Positions 6,201 through 50,105 of a stretch of DNA of 64,000 nt are shown here, in pieces. Numbering within the stretch: position 1 is the first letter of the stretch; each line of letters opens with the position of its first letter. The stretch covers positions 62,001-126,000 of the forward strand of contig CAXHJY010001750.1 in the NCBI GenBank assembly GCA_964016885.1, given 5' to 3'. A program made the position numbers and the translations under genes. The notes under the pieces were generated by a model. The model worked only from the letters and a program-made list of their open reading frames with translations, made no database searches and was not told the origin of the DNA. Source of the DNA: Eledone cirrhosa. Lineage: Eukaryota.

Positions 6201-7719
6201 TAATAATAATAATTGTCAGCCAGAAATTAATATGTGTATGTGTGTTGTTTGATGCATGGTGTGTATATGTGTAGTGTTAGTATGTGATGTGTAAGTCTGA
6301 CGAAACCAACCAAAAAAAATGAAACTTCTAAGTCACTGACAACCTTTCCAAGTAAAAATAAAATCTATACTCTACTCATATGTATTGAGTGCTCTCATTC
6401 AGTCTAAATCCACAGTATTTATATGTATTGTGGTTGGTTATACGTAAAATACACATTAATACACACACATATATATATACTCACATGCTTTTATATATAT
6501 ACACACACATATATATACATAAAGATGTATGTGCGCACATACTTAAATATAGATATATGAATATATATATAATATATATATATACTCACACATACACAAA
6601 CATATATTTATATATACACACACACATGTCAATATATATATATAGACACACACAAATACAAAAATTATAATAAAATAAAAAGAAAATCTTGCTTAAAGAA
6701 CAAATTAAAAAAAAGTGACTGAAGCGTGTTGTGGGGTGGGGGGAGTAGTGGGTGGGAGAATATACAAAGGCATGAGTGGGGTGGAAGGGTTCAATCAAGG
6801 ATGTGGGAGGGGCGATACAGGCTTCAATTGTTTTCATTATAATCCAGGAAGGAGGTGACTGTGGCTTTAGGTTTTTTGTTTTTATTTTAGTTTGTCAAGG
6901 AAACCACATCGGTGGGATATATGGGAGTTTTGGGGGCTGGTGCGATTTGATACATTGTCAGGGAAAGGGTGGGTACTCCTTCTCTAGGAAAATGTCCCAT
7001 TATACATATATACACATATGTATATGGGATGTGTATGTATGTCTGTATATATATATATAGAGAGAGCGAGAGAGAGAGATCTGTGTTAGAGGGTATATAC
7101 ACATATATATATACATATCTGTGTTAGAGGGTATAATATATATATATATATAATATATATGTATGTATTTAGATATTATAAAGAATAAGTGTATGGTTAT
7201 TTAGGTTTTTCCTGTTGCTTTTAGGAGGGTAAGGAAGGAGAGAAGGAGAGAGACTATATATATGCATGTGTGTATATATAATATATATATATGTGTATGT
7301 GTGTGTGTGTGTATATATATACACACACACACATACACATAGTGACCTATACCAGTTAACTGTAGTCCCCTCATCAATAAAAACATTGCATTGGACAAAC
7401 AGACAGACAGACAGGTATGCTAACCAGCTGTCAATCAGTGAAGTCAGTGAGAGAAATATCTTGTGGTGAAGGATTGATGGTGGTGGTGGTGGTGGTGGTC
7501 TTGTTGTTGTTAGTGGTGGCGCAGCAGAAAGAATTTATTTTTTGGAGATTTTTTTTTAGTTTTTTTCATTTTTATATATATTTGTTGCTGCTGCTGTTGT
7601 TGTTGTTGTTCTTTTGGTTTTATTTTTTGTTTTCCTTCCATTCCATTTTTTCTCTTTTTCTTCTTTTTCCTCGGACACCATCTATATCATCAACAGTTAT
7701 AAGTAGAGAGAGAAACAAC

Positions 7720-7890
7720 TCACTGCTGTATTTCACAAACGTATGTGGCTGGAAATAGTCCTTGCAGCCCTCGAGTATTCTCTCCTCTCCACCAGTTTTC
7801 GTCTTTCTTTTCTAAAACTGTGATTATCTCCCCCTTTTGTAGCTGCAACTCTTCGGGGTACTGAGGATCAAAGTCGAACGATGCTTTTAC
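7720..7890 (-). CDS. GRB2: GRB2/drk-like adaptor, last coding exon (C-terminal SH3)
   Basis: Translates VKASFDFDPQYPEELQLQKGEIITVLEKKDENWWRGENTRGLQGLFPATYVCEIQQ*. SH3 motifs (xFDF, ELxL, WWxG, GLFPxxYV). Acceptor tttctgttctccttgcAG at 7891; TGA at 7720-7722. The four exons total 597 nt in one frame. Confidence 0.95.
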   Translation of the reverse strand, partial: VKASFDFDPQYPEELQLQKGEIITVLEKKDENWWRGENTRGLQGLFPATYVCEIQQ

Positions 7891-7919
7891 CTGCAAGGAG
7901 AACAGAAATATATATATAA

Positions 7920-8197
7920 CAGGGATACGTTGTAGTGTGCGGGAGAGAAGACTGCGATGGTATGGACATGTGATGCGCATAGAGGATGACCGCTGGGTAA
8001 AGAAGTACCAAGAAATCCCAGTAGAAGGAAGACAACGAAAAACATTGGCGGAGGTGGTGACAGCAGACCTCAGATCGCTGAAACTCACAGAGGAGATGAT
8101 GAAGAACCGTGACAAGTGGAGAGATGCTGTGCTGAATAGGACCCATCCCACCCTTGCAAGCAGGGAAAAGTGGACGTAAAATGATGATGATGATGAT
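7920..8197 (+). mobile_element. RTE LINE 3' end
   Basis: RERRLRWYGHVMRIEDDRWVKK..DKWR followed by an (ATG)n tail. Confidence 0.85.
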
Positions 8198-9740
8198 ATA
8201 AACAAAGGAAATATTTTTGGAACATGGCAAGCGAAGTTTAGAATTGAAATAGAAATAGAACCTTTACTGTAATATTGACTAAATGATATAGTCTAAGAAT
8301 GGAGCTTATAAAACCTGCTGAACCCATCTTTTTCCAGTCAGTGGGTTTATACACTCTATTGTTAGGTGTGTGTGCACGTGTTATATATATATACACATAG
8401 AGAGAGAGAGAGGAGGATGATGATGATGATATATATGACGGGCTGTTACAGTTTCTGTCTACCAAATTCCCTTCACAAGGCATTGGTCAACTCAAGGCTA
8501 TAGTAGATGACACTTGCCCAGGGTGTCGCATAATGAGACAGAACCCTGAACTAAGTGGCTGTGAAGCAAACTCCTTAACTCCTTAACCAACCAAACCAAA
8601 ACCAGTTCTGGTTCTATGAAATAAAGCCACCCATCTTAAAGGTTTCCACATTAAGTTACTATCTTAGTAATGAAATAATTAATCATTTCAATAAATCCTC
8701 CAAAATTCTTCATTAATTAATTGAAATGAAGTCTATTTCATTAGAAATGCAGTCAAAGGGTTAACCATTCAGCCATGAATGCACCTAAAAAAAAATTCAA
8801 TTTATAGCTCACACCTATTTAGGTTTACCTGGCCACATAGAAAGCTAATTGTGGGTGTTTTAATAAGGGTCTGTAACCTTATCGTGAAAAGTAGTACAAA
8901 ATAAAGTCGCTCAAAGACACAACACACTACAATCATGAGCCAAACACCTAACCACTAAGCAATGCATGTGTGTGTGCTTCATCATCACCTTTTAATGTCT
9001 ATTTTTCCCTGCTAGCATGGGTGAGACAAGTCAGATCAGATATATATATATACATACACATACACAACAAATGCAAGGCCTACACAATCGACAAACATGG
9101 CTGATAATGATGATAGCTAAGGCTGCAGCCGAAGCACTACAAACTTCATTTTAAGGGCCAGGAAATACTTGAATGAGTACTGATATATTGGCGACCCTCT
9201 TCAAATCTCAAGTAAGACTCACAATGGAGTACTTCTGCTACATATGCTACAAACACACACACAGATACATACATATGTGCACAGAAATATATATACACAT
9301 GCACGCACACATTTTCCACAACATTGAAAAGGTTACCTGTCTGATTTGTAAAAAAAAAAATATAATCACCTCATAACAAACTACCTATGCCTTTTTCATT
9401 TGATTTCTGACCAACCACTTTACAGAGTATACAAAATGCATTTTATTGTGACACAAGTAAGGTTGTCATGTCCACTGGGAGGCTAATAAGTACTGTCCAC
9501 TCTATATAATCTCCCCACCCCCACCCCAGAAAAAAAAAAGAATGTTAGTGAGAAAAGGGGGTGGGGTGGGGTGAGAACAATAGTACGGTAGGGGAAGGCA
9601 GGAGGGGACAGTGGTAGCTACTTGGAATTCTCTATTACTGTCTCATCATACATACCACATAGTGACTGAAAGAATGCCATTGACTGTAAGAGGAGAGTGA
9701 AAACTCAGCCTTAAATAAATGACTAATATATATATATATA

Positions 9741-10030
9741 TCATCATCAACGTTTAACGTCCGTGTTCCACGCTTGCATGGGTTTGGACGGGGGTAGTCC
9801 CACTTGAGGCAAGAGTGATTGTCTTGCTCGCATAGGACTGTCTGGCAGGTTTTCTACAGTTGGATGCCCTTCCTACCACCAACCACATTTACAGTGTGGG
9901 TCTGGGAGGTTTTTACCGTGTTGCCTACACGGCCACATTACAGCGTGGACTGTGTGTTTTTTTGTCGTGACACCTACACGATCTCATTTGTTTCGGCCCG
10001 GATGGCGCGGCACCAACATAACTTTACATA
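9741..10030 (-). mobile_element. RTE-tailed non-autonomous retroelement with internal about 42-bp subrepeats (copies 13080-13348, 15430-15735, 16845-17070, 26120-26378, 36445-36845)
   Basis: Shared ccacactgtaaa(g)tggtcgtgtaggtgtcacgacaaaaaa subrepeats, ggaagggcatccagctgtagaaa, and a 3' aacccatgc(t/a)agcgtggaa..gacgttaaa(tga)n tail. Confidence 0.75.
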
Positions 10031-10200
10031 GGACGGGGTGGTGTGGATGGGGTGGGGGGTGGTGGTGGTGGGGCGGGGTGTATTTTGTTAGAGATGCCTA
10101 CTGGCAAGGCGGGTCTTCTCTGTTACTGAGTACCGCCAAAGGTCTCGGTCCAGTGACATATATATATATATCTCTGTGTGTAGCTTATTACTATATATAT

Positions 10201-10232
<32 letters not shown>

Positions 10233-10838
10233 GTACATATACACACACACACAGATGAAGCAACTATGCTGGAACTTTGATTCACTACCACTTTTCTACT
10301 TACAAATATATTTCTACACCCTTGCAAGCAGGGAAAAGTGGACGTAAAATGATGAAAGTGACTCTACTCTTATTTAGTGCTCAATCAGTTCATTTTGTAA
10401 TGTTTTAAATACTTCAGAACTTTAAACACATATTCTAGCATATAAACATAAACACATATACCTATATGCATAATATATATATATATATATCCATGCTAGC
10501 GTGGAAGATAGACGTTAAACGATGATGATGATAATATATATGGAAAAACACGCTTGAGAAAGATGATTATATATATATATACATATATACCATCATCATC
10601 GACCACTTTACGGTGGACATGACAACCTCACTTGCACCACAATAAAATGCACCCTGTACACTCTGTAAAGTGTGTTGTACTAATAATATATATACATACA
10701 TATATGTAGAGGTTATATTTAATTTGTTGGGATACAACAAGCAAAATATTTTTATAACTGATATAAAGCACTCAACAAATTATTGGAGTAAATATACAAT
10801 ATATTAACAAATGGAAACTATATTTATAAAACCATATT

Positions 10839-10904
10839 TATTTCATTATACATATTTCAAGGGCCACCAAAGCAGATTATGGTGCGCTTTCATCAGATAA
10901 AATA
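10839..10904 (-). ncRNA. Type I hammerhead ribozyme (intronic, sense to GRB2-like gene)
   Basis: UAUUUUAU-CUGAUGA-AAGCGCACCA..UGGUGGCCCUU-GAAA-UAUGUA-UA|AUGAAAUA: 8-bp stem I, near-palindromic minimal stem III. Confidence 0.78.
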
Positions 10905-11126
10905 TAATATAGATTAGTTTTTATATGTTTAGTACAGATTAAAGGTTAAAGCAATAAATTTGTGATTTCACACTAAGTGGGATCATCTGAAACTGGGAAA
11001 AATCAATCTGTAGATGCAGGGTGAAAGCAAAAATGTTTTACTTAAACTTTTAATCTGTACTAATAATAAACATTTGCTCTACAGGTTTATATATATATAT
11101 ATAATGTAATAAACAACACAATATAA

Positions 11127-11203
11127 TTATCCCATTACCTAAGGTTTCACAAAGTCAGACGATTCTAACAGAAACGTCTGATTTCGTTCATCAGATGAAA
11201 TAA
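11127..11203 (-). ncRNA. Type I hammerhead ribozyme (intronic, sense to GRB2-like gene)
   Basis: UUAUUUCAU-CUGAUGA-ACGAAAUCAGACG..CGUCUGACUUUGU-GAAA-CC(UUA)GG-UA|AUGGGAUAA: 9-bp stem I, about 12-bp stem II, short stem III, GUA cleavage triplet. Confidence 0.8.
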
Positions 11204-11494
11204 AATAAATAGCTCTGTACAAGAGATAGAGCACTCTTCTTTCCTTTACTTTTTCTATGGAAATACTTAACACACACACAAATATATATATATATATATA
11301 TCATCATCATTATATATATAATGTATGTCTCTCTATATATATATATATATATATAATTTCAAGTGCTACAATATAACATTCTAACCTTGCACGAACAAAC
11401 CAAAGATTTCAAAAAAGTTAATAATAATAATAATAAAAATAATGATAATAATGATAGAGCTAAGTAGGTATTCCAACATGCCACTGTTTATTTC

Positions 11495-11572
<78 letters not shown>

Positions 11573-12114
11573 CTGGCTATCAAAATCAAATGAGTCACCA
11601 ACTATGAAGTGATGGTCATTTGCTGGGTTTTAACTGGACACATGCACACACATGGACCGAGGCACTCACACGGATAGATAGACGCACAGACATACACAGA
11701 CATACAAATACGCACGGATACAGAAGAGTGGAGTTGGGCAAGCTTATAATTTCAAGGAACAAAATAGACATACTACAGCTATTAGAAAAGAGGGAAAGGT
11801 GGTGATGTGGTGATGTGGTGGTGGTAGTAGTGGTGTAGCCATTGCCATTGGTCAGTGGAAAGTGTTGCAATTATCACCTACTTGGAGGAACAACAACAAC
11901 AACAACAACACAGTGCAGCTCTTGTTTCAAAGCTCCACTATACCAGAGACACATACACACACACACACACACAAAACACACATCCTGCTCTACTTTACCT
12001 AGATATATATAATAGCATGTACTACTGCTGCTCACTCACTCACCCCTTATATATATTTACATGCATATATATACATATACGAGCGTGTACACACAAATAT
12101 ATACATACAAATAT

Positions 12115-12147
<33 letters not shown>

Positions 12148-12162
12148 ACATTTATTTATATG

Positions 12163-12212
12163 ACACGCTGAATGAGTTGGGGTGATTAACCCAACGAAAC
12201 TTAAGTACCTGT
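12163..12212 (+). ncRNA. Degenerate hammerhead ribozyme
   Basis: CUGAAUGA (one extra A)-GUUGGG..CCCAAC-GAAA-CUUAAG-UA|CCUGU; perfect 6-bp stem II and palindromic stem III. Confidence 0.55.
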
Positions 12213-12270
12213 ACATATCACTGTGGTAACTAATTATATATATATTTATATATATATAATTAATTTCCCT

Positions 12271-13054
12271 CAGGGAAATGGCCTTGCTCAGTATGTAGGA
12301 AAGGTGTAGGTAGGAACTCCATTCTCTGCCCCAAATGCAAACAATGGGTACACAAGAGATGTAGCGGGATCTCAGGAAGCTTAATTAAGAATGTAGGCTT
12401 CACATGCAGCAGCTGTACTGGGACAGCAAGCAGCAAACAAGTACCACCAATCTCTGGGAGGGCTCTGTAGAGACAGTAGACAGCTTCTGCTACCTAGGTG
12501 ACCGATTTAGCAGCGGAGGTGGGTGTTCAGAAAGTACAATAACTAGGGTAAGAACGGAATGGAAGAAGTTCAGGGAACTACTACCACTGCTAGCTGCAAA
12601 AGGCTTCTCCCTCAAAATGAAAGGCAGACTGTATGATGCATGTATCTGAACAGCAATGTTACATGGTAGTGAGACCTGGGCGCTGAAGGTGGAAGACTTA
12701 CGTAGATTAGAGAGAAACGAAGCCTGCATGCTCCGATGGATGTGTAACAGTAATATACGCGAACGACAAAGCATAAATGAATTGAGAGAGAGACTGAGCA
12801 TAAGAGGAATCAAATGCTGTGTGCAGGAGAGGCGGTTGCATTGGTATGGACATGTGATGCGTATGAAGGATGACAGGTGCAGAGCACTAGAAGCCGATGG
12901 AAACCGCGGAGTGGGGAGACCCAAGATGACCTGGGATGAGGTGATAAAAGCCGACCTTACCCAATTACACCTCTCAAAGGCGATGACACACAACCGTGAC
13001 CTCTGGCGTCACGCAGTAATACAGAGTTCCCGACCTCCCATGGGTACAAGCTGA
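12271..13054 (+). mobile_element. RTE-clade LINE 3' fragment
   Basis: VETVDSFCYLGD, WKKFRELLPLL, MLHGSETW, ERRLHWYGHVMRM, RGVGRPKMTWDEVI; internal stops. Confidence 0.9.
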
Positions 13055-13611
13055 AGCATATAGACAATATGCCCCCACACCCTCCCACTGCAAGGTGGTT
13101 GTGGATGTGTCACGGCAAAAAAGCACCCAGCCCACACTGTAAAGTGGACGTGTAGGCGCCATGAAAAAGCACCCAGCACTCACTGTAAATGAGGTTGGTG
13201 TTAGGAAGGGCATCCAGCTGTAGAAATCAAGCCAAATCAGTTCCTGTATGAGCAAGGCATGGTCAGCCGACCAGACACTGCCCACAACAGGACAACCCGT
13301 CTAACCCATGCTAGCGTGGAAGAACAGACATAAAACGGTGATGATGATATATCTGCCTGTCACAATGTAAAATAAAATATTTTGCTCAAGAACATAACAC
13401 ACTGCTTATCAGTCAATCACACACATATATAATGAATGTTTGACTTTTCCATGATACCATGGATTAGAAGGGATATTTTGAGGCAATGTTTTACAACCTG
13501 ATACCCTTCCTGTCACCAACCCTTTTAGTCAGTTCTCAAGACATACAGTGAATCTCTTCTAAGTCAGATACACACAGACACACACAGTGTGTGTGTGTAT
13601 ATATATATATG

Positions 13612-13930
13612 TTGGAAAATGTGTGATATCCTTGGTACAGTTAGGTATATTTGAAAAAAGGAAAAGAATGACTTCACTTGTAGTTCTAAATAATTTGATT
13701 TAATTTTATAATATTATGAGTTGGTAAGTTCTTTGTCAAACTGAGATTAGTTTGACAATCGCCACCGCCACCAATGAATGCGAGAAAGTTCTCCAGGAAT
13801 CTTTAAAATTCTTCCCACCAAAGTCAACAAAGAACTTACTAGATCTACCAACTCATAATATTATAATATTATAAAATTAAATCAAATTATTTAGAACTAC
13901 AAGTGAAGTCATTCTTTTCCTTTTTTTCAA

Positions 13931-13935
<5 letters not shown>
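13612..13935. mobile_element. Fold-back element with about 90-bp inverted arms in (TA)n
   Basis: Arms 13646-13736 / 13827-13935; an internally deleted hairpin copy at 43245-43410 shares the same flanking tail. Confidence 0.75.
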
Positions 13936-13963
<28 letters not shown>

Positions 13964-13983
13964 AATGAAATAATTGGTCCTTA

Positions 13984-14226
<243 letters not shown>

Positions 14227-42979: not shown

Positions 42980-45099
42980 ACACGCCATATGTGTGGTGAA
43001 AGGGATATGGTACACACAATATTTACAGGTGGGTGAGAAACACATCATCTTAAATAACCTGACATACACTGAGGTAGAGGAAGGGGGCGAATAGTTTTAT
43101 AGAAGTGGAAGGAAGAGGTAGAAATGATAACAAAACAGGACACAACGAAACAGCCTTTTGAACCTGCTAAAAACAACAGCCAAATCTCCTTCAAATCACA
43201 CCATACTGATTTTTAAAGGAGACGTTAGATAATTATATATATATTGGAAAATGTGTGAGACCCTTGGTACAGTTAGGTATATTTGAAGAAAGGGAAAGGA
43301 TGACTTCACTTGTAGTCCTAAACAATTTGATTTAATTTTATAAAATAAAATTAAATCAAATTGTTTAAAACTACAAGTAAAGTCATTCTTTTCCTTTTTT
43401 TTTCAAATAAATAAATATATATATATATAACATTTGCATGCAGATGCTATAGTCACGATGCGAAGGCCTTTGATCATAGGTATACAGGACAATGTAAGGC
43501 ATGAACCAAAAAAGAAGCCAGCTCTTCATGTGATCGTTCGAATTATTAGAAATAGCAGTTACATACCCATTCAATCATGCTCTATATCATCATTAGGTAA
43601 TGTAATATTCGATACATGATTCTCGAAACACCACCACCACCCCCAAAAATACAAACAAAGAAGGGATGGTCATTGCTCCAACGCTTTTCATAGTAAACAT
43701 TTGGACCTAACTGGGGCTAAACAACAAATGAGTGAAATGAGTCAAACGTGAAAATAGAACCAGAATCTTCCTTCAACCCTCCTTAAAATGAATAGGAAGG
43801 ACATATTTTATAGTGTAATCCTAGATACAGTTTGAAATGTAAAAAAAAAAAAATGGACAATTATAGTCAAAGATGGCTCAATCATAGGTTTGCCAGATCA
43901 AAAATGAGATGGCGGAGCAGGCCCTTGTTTTTATCCATTGTTCCATGATTGCACGGGGCAGACAATGGTTGGGTGGATTTTTATCCTGGTTCCAAGTGAC
44001 GTTAAGCGACTGAAAGTACAAAACTTTCCTCCTTCCCCTTCTTCTAACTTAGTAGTTCGACAAACAGAGAGCGATGAAATAAATACCAAGCCAAAAGAAA
44101 ATATAAATTAGTACTAGGGTTGATATATATGATCACAGTAAAAAGAAAACGAAAAGGCCTAGCTATATATATGTATATATATATATATATATATAGAGAT
44201 AGATATATTTCTTTATTAGCCACAGGGGCACAAAAGAAGGGGACAAATACAAAGGGGGAAGTTTACATACAATAAAAACGTGTAAAATGTTATCACAGAT
44301 GGAATTTAAAAGTTAGTCGATTTTCCCCAATAGAGGGAGAGAGTTTATATGGGTAACACAGACCCCCGAAAAAAATGTGCAACCCTCATCTCCAGGAGTA
44401 CGAAGAGCTTGTACTCCTTTCCTCTCCTCCTCCTTTTCCTCAACCTACAGGCTGATATAGAGAGAAGGCCCATTCACTCGGGCCATTCTCGCCACTTTCA
44501 CCCACCTTTCATAAAACTTGCTGGGGTACAGCACCTCTCTCTCCATCCTGATTCTTCTTCCAAAGTGGTATTTGAAAAAAAGAATCAGTTGTTAGAGATA
44601 GATAGATAGATAGATATATATATAGAGAGAGAGAGAGATATCCCCAGTTAAATTGGGGGTAACCGCAGTTTAAAAAGGTACTCGATACATTAGTTGAGTG
44701 TAAGCATCATTATTTTTGGCAGTATCGGAAGAGGGTCGGACGCCATGCTTTGACGCATAGAGTTACGGCCCTTGCCATTCTGAGTTCAAATCCCGCCGAG
44801 GTCAACTTTGCCTTTCATCTTTACGGGGTCGATAAAATAAATAAAGTACCAGTAATACACTGGATAATTGCTGGCCTTGTGCCAAAAGTAGAAACAATTA
44901 TTTAATATAGAAATGGTTTCTACAGTACTAGAACTGTATCATTCCTACGAATGAAACAGTTTTAGCCCTGTAGAAGCCATTTCTATATTAAATGATATGT
45001 ATGAATATATATACATATATATGTGTGTGTGTGTGTCATTTCACTCCAGAATGAAAACATAGCTAGCATATATATATATATATAATGAAAAATTGAACG

Positions 45100-48000
45100 G
45101 GAACAAAACAGAGAGGCAGTACAACAAATGTTTATTAATTTCACGCTCTTGAGAGTGGGGTGGTGGTGGGGAACGACGTTTCGGGCATAAGCCCTTCTTC
45201 AGGTGAAAAGTGTGTGGGAAGAGAGTTCAAAGGGTGTGTAGGGGAGTGGTGGAGAGACATATAGCAAAAAGAGGGTGAGAGGAAACGGTGCAAATGAAAT
45301 TAAAAATAAAGGCATGATCAAAATAAAATTAAAATGGGGTAAAACAGGTGGTGGAAGGGTGTGGGGCGTGTAGGGGTGGTAGTGGGTGAGTGGGGAGAGG
45401 GAGACGGGGTGTCCGAGCGAGGAGGGCTGAAGGTGGTGTGTGTGTGTATGTGAAAGCAAGAGTTGGGGGAAGAACGGGGTTGCATGTTCAGGAAGAGGTG
45501 TGTGTGGGGTGGGGGGGGGGGGGTGCGTGTGTGGATAAAGGGGTGGGGGGAGAGGAATCCGGAGGCTGAATGTGTAAATATGTGGTGGTACGCACGTGTG
45601 TGTGTGGTGTTTAAGCGTGTTGTGGGTGTAGGTGGCGTGTGGGAAAAAAAAAATTATTTTTGGGTGTGTCATAAAGGTGATTCCTTAAGATGTGGTGGGA
45701 TGCTTAATTCCGGGATCAAGGTTCACACACGTGTAAAGAGATTGGTCTGAAGAGGGGAGATGTGGGGTGCGCGCGCAACAGGAAGTGGTCAAGGCAGCAG
45801 GAGTGTGATGTGTCTGTGGTCAGAGGGCATAGAAGCAGTAGGGTAAAATGGTGAGTGTGTGTTGTGTGTCTGTGTGTGCAGGGAGGTGGTCAGAGGGCAT
45901 AGCAGCAGTAGGGTAGAATGGTAAGGGGGAGAGGATGGGTAGGTGTGAAAGTTGGAGTGAGGAGGCGGTGTGTGTGTATTAGTAGAGGTGTTAGTGGGAT
46001 GAGTGTGTGTTTGAGAAAGGGTGTGGGTGGAGCGGGGAGAGAAGGGTGTGGGGGCCGATGGAGGGTGTGTGGTGTACTGGTGTGTGTGTTTGGTGAAGGG
46101 GGTGTTAGTATACAGGAGGTGGAGAAAGGGTTGAATGCGGGTGTGAGTGGGGGGTCAGTGGTGGTAGGTGGTGTAAGAGGGTGTGTGTGTACGTGTGCGT
46201 AGGGTTGGGGGGTGTTAGTGATGTTAGTTGCGTGTAGGGTGGGTGGTGTAAGTGGGTGTGTGTGTTCGTGTGCTTGGGGTCAGGGGGTGTTAGTGATGTT
46301 AGTTGCGGGGTGGTGGGGTGGATGTGTGGTGGTGAGGGTTAGTGGTGGTGGTAGTAGGGTGTGTGTTTAGTGTGAGCGCGTGTATATATGTGCCGGTGGG
46401 TGTGTGCGTGTGATAAGGAGGGGGGAGGAGAGAAGGGAGGGATGTAAGTATGTTAGTTGGGGAAGGGTGGTCGGATGTGGGGTGGAGTGGAGGTGTTAGT
46501 AGTGTTAGTTGTGGGGTGGGCGGTGAAAAGGAGGGGTGTGTTAGTGGTGTTAGTGGGGGATATGTGTGAGTGGAGGGGGGCGGTCGAAGGCTAAAGGAAT
46601 AAGGGTGGGGAGTTCAGGCCGGGGGGGAGTGTGGGTCTGTAAGATGAAGATGGTTCGTTGTTCAACTCTGAGGAGATTGGCCGGTGTTCCGTGGCATTGG
46701 AGTAGGCCACAGACTGTGAGATGGCGTGCGGAATGTCCAGGGGCACCAAAGTGGCGGGCGATGGGGGAACTACCACCGAGACAAATATCCCGGAGGTGCT
46801 CAGTGAATCGGTCCGCCAGGCGACGTCCAGTCTGTCCGACGTAAGTCGCGCTGCACTCCGTGCAGCGAAGTCCGTAGACTAGGTTGGAGGAGGTGCAGCG
46901 GAAGGCATGCCGGACAGAGAGAGTGTGGCCGTTGGGACCCTGGAAGGTGGTCGTGTTGGTGATGTGGGGACAGATGTTGCAGCGGGGCGTAGAACAGGGA
47001 AAGGAACCGGGGTGGGGGGGCGTGGGTTGGGGGTAGGGAGCTGTGGACGAGGAGGGTGCGGAGATTGCGTGCGTGTTTGAAAGAGGGGAGTGGTGGGGCT
47101 GGGAAGATGTGGGAGGTGGAGGGGTATGGTGGAGGGGTGGTAGGTGATGGGGAAGGGGAGACGGTGGGTGGGTGGCGTGAGGTGAGGGTGGTGGAGCGGT
47201 GGACAGCACGGGCGCGGGTGAGAGCGGTGTGAACGAGAGAGTGGGGGTAACCTCTGCGGATGAAATGGCTGACTAGGGAAAGGGCCTGGGACTCAAAGTC
47301 GGCATCTCGGCTCCAGATCCTGAGGAGTTGGTAGTAGGGAATAGAGCGTTTAGTGTGTGTGGGGTGGGAAGAGGTGAATCCGAGGTAAGAGTGGAAGTCG
47401 GTGGGTTTGAAGAAGGCGGAGGTGACGTTCGAAGGCGACGGAGATGTCTAAGAAGTGGACGTGGGTGGTGGAGATAGAGGTGGTGAAGTGGAGGGAGGGG
47501 TGGAAGGAGCAGAAGGAGAGAAAGGAGTCGAGCTGTTCTCGGGTGAGGGTCGTGGCTCCGATACAGTCGTCGATGTAACGACCGTACAGTTCGGGCGTGG
47601 GGCCGGTGTACTGGGCAAAAATTTGGGCCTCAACATGGCCAACAAAAAGGTTGGCATAGTTTGGGCCCATGGCTACCCCCGTGACCTGTTGGTAAAACTC
47701 ACCCGAGAAGGAGAAATAATTGAGGGTGAGGACCAGCTCGGCGAGGCGAAGGAGGGTGGGGGTGGAGGGAATGGGGGAGGAGCGAAGGTCGAGGTAGTGT
47801 TTGAGGGCGCGTAGGCCGTCGGCGTGGGGGATGACGGTATAGAGGGACTTGATGTCTAGGGTGAAGAGGAAGGGCTGTGGGCCGGGTGGGTAGGTGAAGG
47901 AGTCGAAAAGGCGCAGGGCGTGGTTGGTGTCGGAGATGTGGGAGGGGAGGGTGGTGATAAGGGGGGGGGGGGGATGGAGTCGAGAAAGGCGGAGATGAGT

Positions 48001-48210
48001 TCGGTGGGGCAGTTGCAAGCGGAGACGATGGGGCGGCCGGGGTTGTCGGGTTTGTGGAGTTTGGGGAGGAAGTAGATGGTGGGGGTGCGGACGATGAGGT
48101 GGGAAGCGGTGGGAGGGAGGAGGAGACAAGGTGTTGGATGGTGGAGGAAACTTGTTGTTGGTAGAGGGGTGTGGGATCGGAGGGTAGAGGGCGGTAGAAG
48201 AGGGGGTTAC
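45100..48210 (-). mobile_element. Penelope-like retroelement (Neptune-type), 5'-truncated and frameshifted; RT + Cys linker + GIY-YIG endonuclease + long 3' region
   Basis: ORF 47350-48129 has RT motifs LFTLDIKSLYTVIPH, GVAMG, YGRYIDD, VHFLDISV. ORF 46550-47209 has CSTPRCNIC, CTSSNLVYGLRCTECSATYVGQTGRRLADRFTEH (GIY-YIG) and IARHF. Hammerhead near the 3' end. Confidence 0.93.
45173..45204 (-). ncRNA. Minimal hammerhead ribozyme of the Penelope pLTR
   Basis: Minus strand CUGAAGA-A-GGGC-UUAU-GCCC-GAAA-CG-UC: intact core, 4-bp stem II, palindromic ACGU stem III, weak stem I. Confidence 0.8.
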
Positions 48211-48223
48211 GGATATATATATA

Positions 48224-48580
48224 TGCAGAGGTTATATTTAATTTGTTGGACAAGCTTAAACATTTTTTATAACTGATATAAAGCACTCAACAAATGGGTG
48301 GATAGTGGATATCCAGCGAATTTCAACCGTTGAGGTTGTCTTTTTCCGGGTATGTCAATATTTATTTATAAAACAAATCTGTATTTTATCTGATGAAAGC
48401 GCACCATAATTTACCTTGGTCGCCCTTGAAATATATATAATAAAATAATTATGGTTTTATAAATATAGTTTCCATTTATTAATATATTGTATTTACTCCA
48501 CTAACTTGTTGAGTGCTTTATAACAGTTATAAAAATGTTTAAGCTTGTTGAATCCCAACAAATTAAATATAACTTCTGCA
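48224..48580 (+). mobile_element. Non-autonomous hammerhead-bearing fold-back element in (TA)n
   Basis: About 70-bp inverted termini (48224-48295 vs 48506-48580), internal hammerhead, flanked by (TA)n. Second copy on the minus strand at about 10705-10910. Confidence 0.75.
48382..48447 (+). ncRNA. Type I hammerhead ribozyme inside a fold-back element
   Basis: UAUUUUAU-CUGAUGA-AAGCGCACCA..UGGUCGCCCUU-GAAA-UAUAUA-UA|AUAAAAUA; perfect 8-bp stem I; same family as 10839-10904. Confidence 0.8.
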
Positions 48581-49404
48581 TATATATATATGTGCAACCA
48601 CGCAGCACGCCATTTTTCATATATATATATATATATACTCACACGCACGTGTGTATAGAACTATCTAGAAACTGAAAGTGCTCACACATAATACAATATG
48701 TGTGTATGTCACTGCATGTTTTTCTACGGTCTTCCATACATCATTGTATGCTAGTTGCTAGTAAAAAGATATTAGGAGAGAGAGAGAGATGAAGTGAGCG
48801 CCACTACAACTAGTGAAAGTCGTTGTAGTAGTCGGGGCGATGGCGGCGGTGGTGGAAGGTGATTTGATGTTCGGTTATGGGGTCAAGTAAAATAGAAATC
48901 TTTAAGTGCAGATATTAAACAAGTGTCAGTGAGAGAAGGGGAGGTTGGGAGGGAGTAACAGGTGAAATAAGGGGTGTAGTGGTAGGAATAAGAGCAATAG
49001 ATACCGGATGAACTTGAGAAATGGTATGGTGGTGGTCACAGTGGTGTTGGTGTTGAGGTAATGAAAGTTGAGGTGGTGTTAGTGACGTGTGGTAGTGCTG
49101 TTGGTGGTGGTTGCGACAGTAGTATAAATGGTAATGTTCGTTGTGGATGAAGAAAAAGTAAAACAGCCACAGCAAAGCAACAACAACAAAAGAAAAGCGA
49201 CAATAAACAAAAAGGAAAAGGCTCTGATCCCTTAAACAACTGTTTTTACGATTTTAGGTGTGAATGTTCCGTCTGAAAAGACAGACCGTGCCATGTCAAG
49301 TTACAATAGTTACTTGACATGGCACAGTCTGTCTTTTCAGATATGTCCCAAGGCTCTGATACCAACACCATAAACACAGAGCTGGCATATCTAAGAACTG
49401 ACTA

Positions 49405-49451
49405 ACTGCCTGATGAGGTCATAACCATTCAATCGAAATATATATAGCAGT
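49405..49451 (+). ncRNA. Minimal type I hammerhead ribozyme
   Basis: ACUGC-CUGAUGA-GGU..AUC-GAAA-UAUAUA-UA|GCAGU; perfect 5-bp stem I, weak stem II, palindromic stem III. Confidence 0.72.
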
Positions 49452-49504
49452 AAATAAAGGATTATGAGTTCATGCAATTGACTTATGTTTCGTCACTATA
49501 TATA

Positions 49505-49540
<36 letters not shown>

Positions 49541-49833
49541 CAGAAGCCTGACATTATTTATGTAAGCGGACGGTACTTGATTTAGGAGCCGCAGAAACCC
49601 AAATACTGGATTTTACCAACCTTCCAGGGGTCCGGGTAAATTTTCAATACCCGAATTACTTGATCGTTTTTTGGGCTATGCGAATGATTGTTTAACCATC
49701 GTCTCAGTGTGTTTGGCGTTTAACGTTTGTCATAGCTCTGGTTCATCTGAACCATTGAGCACTTGCCTCACATCTCGGAGGTTGCTTTTCGTTATTTCGT
49801 GGGCCGAAATGCGAATCTCGATAATTTATGTTT

Positions 49834-49874
<41 letters not shown>

Positions 49875-49884
49875 TATAAGTTAA

Positions 49885-50105
49885 AACAGAAAACAAAAAC
49901 AAAGAGTGCAGTACAAAGTGTTAGTATTAGGTTCACGCTTGAGAGTGGGGGTGGGACGCGACGTTTCTGGCATAAGCTCTTCATCAGGAGAAAAGTGGGA
50001 AGGAAAAGAGTTCCGAGGGTGTGAGGGGGAGTGGTGGAAAGACATTAAAAAGGGGGTGGGAAATGAAGGGAAAGAAAAAAAAAATTAAAATTAAACAAGT
50101 GGTGA
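49885..50105 (-). mobile_element. Second, diverged copy of the Penelope terminal (pLTR-like) segment
   Basis: Aligns by eye with 45100-45330 (aacaaaac..ttcacgct..gagagtgggg..gacgtttc.ggcataagc.cttc.tcagg.gaaaagtg..ggggagtggtgga), same orientation. Confidence 0.8.
49958..49990 (-). ncRNA. Minimal hammerhead, degenerate (pLTR copy)
   Basis: Minus strand CUGAUGA-A-GAGC-UUAU-GCCA-GAAA-CG-UC; stem II damaged. Confidence 0.6.

Follow-up and report, generated by a model that had tools for sequence, protein, structure and literature searches.

Can an intron cut itself twice and set free a small RNA? The question is raised by two hammerhead motifs within the window, by which we mean the whole 64,000-nt stretch of Eledone cirrhosa DNA analyzed here. 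The original prediction placed both ribozymes on the sense strand of the last intron of a GRB2-like gene and held that they could sever this intron and release a 289-nt linear or circular RNA, as in retrozymes.

Two hammerhead motifs in the last coding intron

The host gene was delineated from Pfam matches to its SH2 and SH3 exons and from splice sites read by eye (Table 1), and the placement in the last intron holds in the sense of the last coding intron. This phase-0 intron is 6,099 nt long and carries the two motifs, A and B, near its middle. From the domain order, we take the gene to be GRB2. Its SH2 exon is single-copy in the 3.0-Gb assembly, which contains neither a second copy nor a haplotig of the gene and therefore offers no empty site for comparison. 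Two fragments of a LINE-type retrotransposon C-terminus also lie in the host intron, at 12264-13054 and 7865-8179 on the plus strand, antisense to the gene, and similar frames are present in loci L122 and L232. Of additional note, the base composition at positions 44001-50000 is strongly skewed toward G, unlike in the remaining window (GC 0.59 and skew +0.62 at 46-48 kb).

A type I descriptor scan of both window strands found A and B on the minus strand, that is, the pre-mRNA strand, each with the CUGAnGA / GAAA / UH core and three helices in type I order. Hammerhead A has C3 at 11194, H17 at 11136, a GUA triplet, a stem I of 9 bp, a long stem II, and a helix III of 3 bp with a 3-nt loop; hammerhead B has C3 at 10896, H17 at 10847, an AUA triplet, a stem I of 8 bp, and a helix III of 2 bp with a 4-nt loop. 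The scan thus reproduced the strand, the intact cores, and the stem I lengths of 8-9 bp that had been claimed for them, together with the cut positions (11136/11135 for A and 10847/10846 for B) and their spacing of 289 nt. There are 3 strict type I matches in the window and 0 in each of 40 block-wise dinucleotide shuffles, and the two motifs in the intron are real; Rfam at gathering thresholds gave no match in the window, and hence none to any hammerhead model. The third strict match, at 48390-48439 on the plus strand (element 48382-48447), has a stem I of 8 bp and is a diverged copy of the B lineage. A weaker candidate at 49402-49454 (+), with a stem I of only 5 bp, is probably part of another repeat family, because similar sequence flanks locus L025.

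Table 1. Features of the host gene and of the hammerhead-bearing region (positions in the window)
Feature	Position	Strand	Basis
First SH2 exon	15199-15053	-	Pfam
Second SH2 exon	13990..14170	-	Pfam; splice sites by eye; single-copy test on SH2 exon
Last coding intron of the SH2-SH3 adaptor (GRB2-like) gene	7891..13989	-	Splice sites by eye
C-terminal SH3 exon and stop codon	7720..7890	-	Pfam; splice sites by eye
Family A's own 3' extension (tail) as an inverted copy, facing repeat A head-to-head	11203..11280	+	Own-genome copies
Repeat A: 5'-truncated pLTR end of a Penelope-like element family (likely), TA run at end	11088..11202	-	Own-genome copies
Hammerhead A	11126..11203	-	Descriptor scan; fold z -3.97; 9-nt palindromic helix III segment
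Repeat C: inverted pair, ~170-nt hairpin	10934..11103	.	Own-genome copies, folding
Repeat B: 5'-truncated pLTR (10921-10789) and 3' extension (10788-10686)	10686..10921	-	Own-genome copies, parent ORFs
Hammerhead B	10839..10904	-	Descriptor scan; fold z -0.63; 8-nt self-complementary helix III segment

Three repeat families between the predicted cuts

Own-genome searches divided the region between the cuts into three dispersed repeats, A, C, and B. Copies of A and B are 5'-truncated, have TA runs at the end, may carry a 3' extension, and often have an inverted partner; 5' truncation, inverted partner, optional 3' tail, and (TA)n flanks, the features of a Penelope-type insertion, are thus all present, and one survey reports the same anatomy for Penelope-like elements (PMC8557442). 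The tail of family A follows the hammerhead on the sense strand in loci L005, L013, L022, and L030. Sequence shared by A and B is limited to short AT-rich matches, none longer than 22 nt, and the 289-nt stretch likewise has only short AT-rich matches to its neighbors. For repeat C, there are 2,692 candidates genome-wide, and the 40 scored are 74-81% identical over the whole length and up to 93% per arm; no hammerhead was found in C at 10934-11103. Across the genome, copies of C form inverted pairs, head-to-head and flanked by TA, and may have a tail. To judge from these copies, C looks like the end of one more Penelope-type family, of which the part retained has no hammerhead.

The arrangement of the three does not recur: we found neither the C/A nor the B/C junction at any of 285 other loci (1.45 Mb in total), which include loci chosen for A, B, or C. 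One contig, among the pieces listed for 9000-13000 from three contig runs of one sample, spans 10896-11067 with zero differences, so that the B/C junction is also present in sequence other than the assembly, which may nevertheless come from the same sample. None of the pieces listed from these runs, among which repeat copies dominate, bridges the C/A junction.

These observations bear on the idea that the 289-nt stretch is the monomer of a non-LTR retrozyme lying between its two hammerheads, to which we give next to no credence. Its length does fall within the range of 170-400 nt given for animal retrozymes in PMC7229834, and true retrozyme-like arrays do occur in the same genome; but the A-B locus has no tandem repeat and no consecutive homologous units, its two ends are as dissimilar as described above, the A-C-B unit is confined to this one locus among those searched, and the true arrays consist of 310-nt units that are 99% identical. 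One such array (L155:112-3603; G000:C3:190000112-190003603, minus strand) comprises 11.3 tandem copies at 34% GC, every unit carrying a type I hammerhead whose helix III segment is a 6-nt palindrome, and adjoins an assembly gap. A 26-nt motif from it occurs 3,963 times genome-wide, and in the first 100 places listed, the family forms mostly arrays of 310-311-nt period, often head-to-head like Penelope-type insertions. As a candidate source of circular RNA, this family far surpasses the A-B locus.

Repeat B is, on the identity of its copies, young. Of 818 candidates, 40 were scored; in the resulting list of 46 matches, 14 places besides this locus match it at 100% over all 91 nt. A 21-mer from it has 5,586 exact occurrences genome-wide against 0 for the control. 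The hammerhead lies downstream of its shared upstream sequence in 29 of 30 loci. Seven of the 30, selected for ORF remnants, were extended, and we directly observed an RT-endonuclease ORF upstream of B in all 7; in 3 of them (L254-L256), B also stands just before the ORF start, giving the order pLTR-ORF-pLTR. Locus L254 illustrates this layout, with B at 2684-2816, its extension to 2905, the ORF from 2945, and the second B at 6448-6577. While the parent ORFs were not recognized in a Pfam search, ESM Atlas scores of 0.95-0.97 link them to clusters with HTH_animal (17-76% of members) and GIY-YIG (35-60%). By eye, their translations contain DKT, RWR in place of RWK, a CxCX5C linker, CxxC, CxH, and a C-terminal endonuclease. 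Judged by these sequence features, B is the pLTR of a young Penelope-like element with Hydra-clade motifs, the clade being read from the motifs in the translations, and its hammerhead tests as a Penelope-like pseudo-LTR hammerhead.

A Penelope-type RT adjoining one B copy (L056) was rejected as the parent of B: of 30 loci, B lies near it at the source locus only. This RT belongs to a separate family (L056:2393-3091 and L241:2-2848) with 22,365 candidates, the best 150 of which have 94-100% amino-acid identity, and at 29 of 30 loci examined, the RT has neither an A nor a B hammerhead within 1.5 kb.

Repeat A is older than B by the same kind of evidence: of 1,445 candidates, 40 were scored, and the best copies elsewhere show 87-94% identity; a degenerate 26-nt pattern has 261 exact matches genome-wide. 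In 30 family-A loci, 20 of them extended, no intact parent of at least 90% identity was found; a Penelope-type RT lies near 1 of the 30 and, after extension, 1 of the 20, at the same place. We then have 29 other Hydra-type loci, found by searching with the RT from this single RT-bearing locus. In 16 of these (a few of the loci overlap), an A-like hammerhead (72-82%) lies within 1.5 kb of the RT, and in 10, it stands in sense orientation just before the ORF; for comparison, A-like matches appear in 2 of 58 sampled 10-kb stretches. The A-side translations contain, by eye, DKT, RWK, a CxCX5C linker, CxxC, CxH, and a C-terminal endonuclease, and the B-side and A-side ORFs are 36.6% identical. A is therefore likely an older pLTR from a related Penelope-like lineage, which we infer to be a sister lineage. 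Among the Hydra-type elements are some, such as L284:751-2892 and L285 (G000:C516 and G000:C1), with 714-aa open frames at many places and a pLTR hammerhead core CUGAGGA; these frames suggest a young, possibly active Hydra-type family.

How often do such motifs fall together? A sample of 58 stretches of 10 kb at round coordinates (579,600 bp in total) contained 12 strict hammerheads, with 0 in the reversed and 0 in the complemented controls; two further stretches from the window's own contig, analyzed apart, contained no hammerhead match. This density of ~21 per Mb corresponds to ~60,000 Penelope-type hammerheads in the genome, extrapolated from 12 in 0.58 Mb, and arithmetic from it gives ~190 same-strand pairs within 300 nt genome-wide without clustering. 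We directly observed one same-strand pair of different-family hammerheads among the 58 stretches, 260 nt apart and with one A-like member (L151:5700-6060; G000:C2:290005700-290006060), so the background rate of mixed pairs rests on one event. Five more same-strand non-identical pairs, 336-542 nt apart, occur in 134 family-centered loci (the sets partly overlap), and one of the five consists of two B-lineage members. The same-strand mixed arrangement is plainly not unique in this genome, and close mixed pairs are expected to number hundreds at least. With separate repeat families, unique junctions, and mixed pairs elsewhere, the caveat attached to the original prediction, that the two ribozymes come from different families and may be paired by chance, is borne out.

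Predicted cleavage and the fate of the intron

Based on these findings, we propose, with a probability of roughly 0.87, that the locus is a stack of three repeat fragments: the pLTR of a young Penelope-like retrotransposon (B), an older pLTR likely from a related lineage (A), and an unrelated hairpin repeat between them (C), likely brought together by separate insertions into TA-rich DNA and predicted to release no 289-nt RNA. The locus would be ordinary, since its motifs are the ends of two very common element families that, together with the intervening third repeat, were likely stacked by chance. Reverse transcription of such an element would start near its 3' end and usually abort, leaving a hammerhead-bearing end with or without a tail and often with an inverted partner. 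The TA runs left by each insertion may attract the next; at this locus, A would have inserted earlier and B recently. Hammerheads of the A and B type would be suited to cleavage as self-dimers within tandem RNA of the element, and a lone B, having no partner for a self-dimer, would be silent. A is perhaps slowly active by itself, and the host pre-mRNA is probably still spliced.

The helix III segments are consistent with this. Of 78 distinct hammerheads, 71 have an A15.1-U16.1 segment that is self-complementary throughout, where the descriptor forced the outer pair only, although the 71 are not independent because they come from few families. A self-complementary helix III is a signature of ribozymes working as self-dimers; Penelope-like hammerheads reportedly cleave as dimers, a result attributed to Lunse et al. 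in 2017. The palindromes of A and B differ and do not pair with each other, with duplex energies of -8.4 (A.A), -2.2 (B.B), and +0.7 kcal/mol (A.B).

In constrained folding, the active monomer lies 3.4-5.7 kcal/mol above the ensemble for A and 8.5-10.1 kcal/mol for B in context, and the pairs of B's stem I have probability 0.00 in three context lengths; as a control, the dimer in a natural array of the same genome lies 5.6 kcal/mol above the ensemble. Since the energy of monomeric A is no worse than that of the true-array dimer, A alone could cut slowly, whereas the active fold of B is predicted to be rare in context. These energies are relative hints only, because the nearest-neighbor model omits core and tertiary contacts and the co-transcriptional order of folding, and the measure does not rank isolated motifs, since isolated B (5.5 kcal/mol above the ensemble) is no worse than the isolated monomer of that array (6.7 kcal/mol). 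A mixed A-B double hammerhead was suggested by the cross-compatibility of the stem I arms (10 Watson-Crick pairs one way and 8 pairs, including 3 G.U, the other way), and hairpin C brings the two ribozymes close in the predicted fold; this candidate was rejected, with 1+2 pairs in helix III and an energy of 23-31 kcal/mol above the ensemble.

It is improbable that the motifs, though brought together by chance, both cut as independent monomers, perhaps with the help of a protein, and yield a 289-nt chimera that RtcB could circularize as a by-product. The cores and stems of A and B are intact, and RtcB circularizes retrozyme monomers in vitro and invertebrate retrozyme hammerheads can cleave efficiently (PMC7229834), while the hammerhead of an anole Penelope-like element is described as cutting in vitro only once its protein is added (PMC11167929). 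Against this stand the predicted state with both A and B active, 12.8-14.1 kcal/mol above the ensemble, and the lack of pairing in B's stem I. In addition, the minimal metazoan Penelope-like hammerheads are described as having no monomer activity and low activity as dimers (PMC4209133), and RNA-seq is said to show no read ends at the anole cut site (PMC11167929). The severing of the intron and the release of a retrozyme-like RNA are thus not supported, given the mosaic of three repeats, the non-pairing helices III of A and B, the predicted rarity of B's active fold, and the mixed pairs elsewhere. Modeled in this way, the A-C-B locus appears to be transposon debris from which a circle is unlikely.

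It is very unlikely that the host has co-opted one or both hammerheads, most likely A, to tune maturation of the adaptor mRNA through co-transcriptional cutting of the last intron. The motifs are in sense orientation within a single-copy gene, the core of A is intact despite ~10% family divergence while 14 of 29 other A loci lack a central descriptor match, and the CPEB3 intronic ribozyme offers a precedent (PMC10919898). Yet the other 15 of the 29 A loci likewise keep an intact core, and B is too recent to show host selection, being identical to many copies. Moreover, an account citing Dye 2006 and Fong 2009 states that introns cut by slower hammerheads are still spliced, and reports from cited work that a fast HDV ribozyme blocks splicing (PMC2995048).

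A broader idea, which we regard as quite improbable, is that unlike Penelope-type hammerheads, stacked by chance within introns that are transcribed, serve as a nursery of new circular RNAs: hairpin C would hold the cut ends, ligation would rebuild a chimeric hammerhead, and reverse transcription would found a new retrozyme array. If that happens, the chimera would combine the core of B with the 3' arm of A, having an 8-bp stem I and keeping B's self-complementary helix III, and an active element would reverse-transcribe the circle. Such pairs would number hundreds to thousands in this genome, making it a place to test how retrozymes are born. A circle from this locus, if made, would show that retrozymes can originate from transposon debris. 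On the reading we prefer, the stack of three repeat fragments, the A-B locus itself matters little, as one among the many Penelope-type hammerheads of this genome, and its modest use is to point to abundant, partly very young Hydra-type elements with hammerheads.

Comparison with known systems

The closest known systems are the hammerheads that metazoan Penelope-like elements carry in their pseudo-LTRs (Cervera and De la Pena 2014, PMC4209133), which resemble A and B in type I topology, a long helix II, and a small palindromic helix III suited to dimers. They too occur mostly as single motifs from truncated elements, with opposite-strand pairs 100-700 bp apart and thousands per genome. Stem I is longer in A and B (8-9 bp) than in the Schistosoma motifs (4-5 bp), the 3-bp helix III of A may permit some activity as a monomer, and here the two motifs come from different families.

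The parent of B is similar to the Hydra-clade elements with a C-terminal endonuclease (C-terminal EN+; Craig et al. 2021, PMC8557442): it has the same single ORF with a C-terminal GIY-YIG-type endonuclease, DKT, RWK (RWR in the B parent), CxCX5C, CxxC, and CxH, and the same pLTR hammerheads, (TA)n targets, inverted 5'-truncated partner, and optional tail. It differs in the distance from pLTR to pLTR, ~3.8 kb for B against generally <3 kb in the Hydra clade, and in the optional extension, ~80-100 nt against 30-40 nt. Few Hydra families are recorded outside cnidarians in that source, whereas they are abundant in this genome. In the published full text searched (mostly open papers, without supplements), we found no description of these hammerhead-bearing cephalopod-type Hydra families; the supplements of PMC8557442 may list some.

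Like the A-B locus, animal non-LTR retrozymes (PMC7229834; Li et al. 2026, 10.64898/2026.07.22.740005) have two same-strand type I hammerheads 170-400 nt apart and a low GC content. A retrozyme repeats one unit in tandem, each copy with the same ribozyme, while A-C-B is a one-off mosaic of three repeats. The CPEB3 ribozyme (PMC10919898) is likewise a self-cleaving motif on the sense strand of an intron, self-cleavage of A and B being a prediction. That ribozyme is HDV-like and highly conserved in mammals, whereas A and B belong to high-copy repeats, and one of the two copies is very recent.
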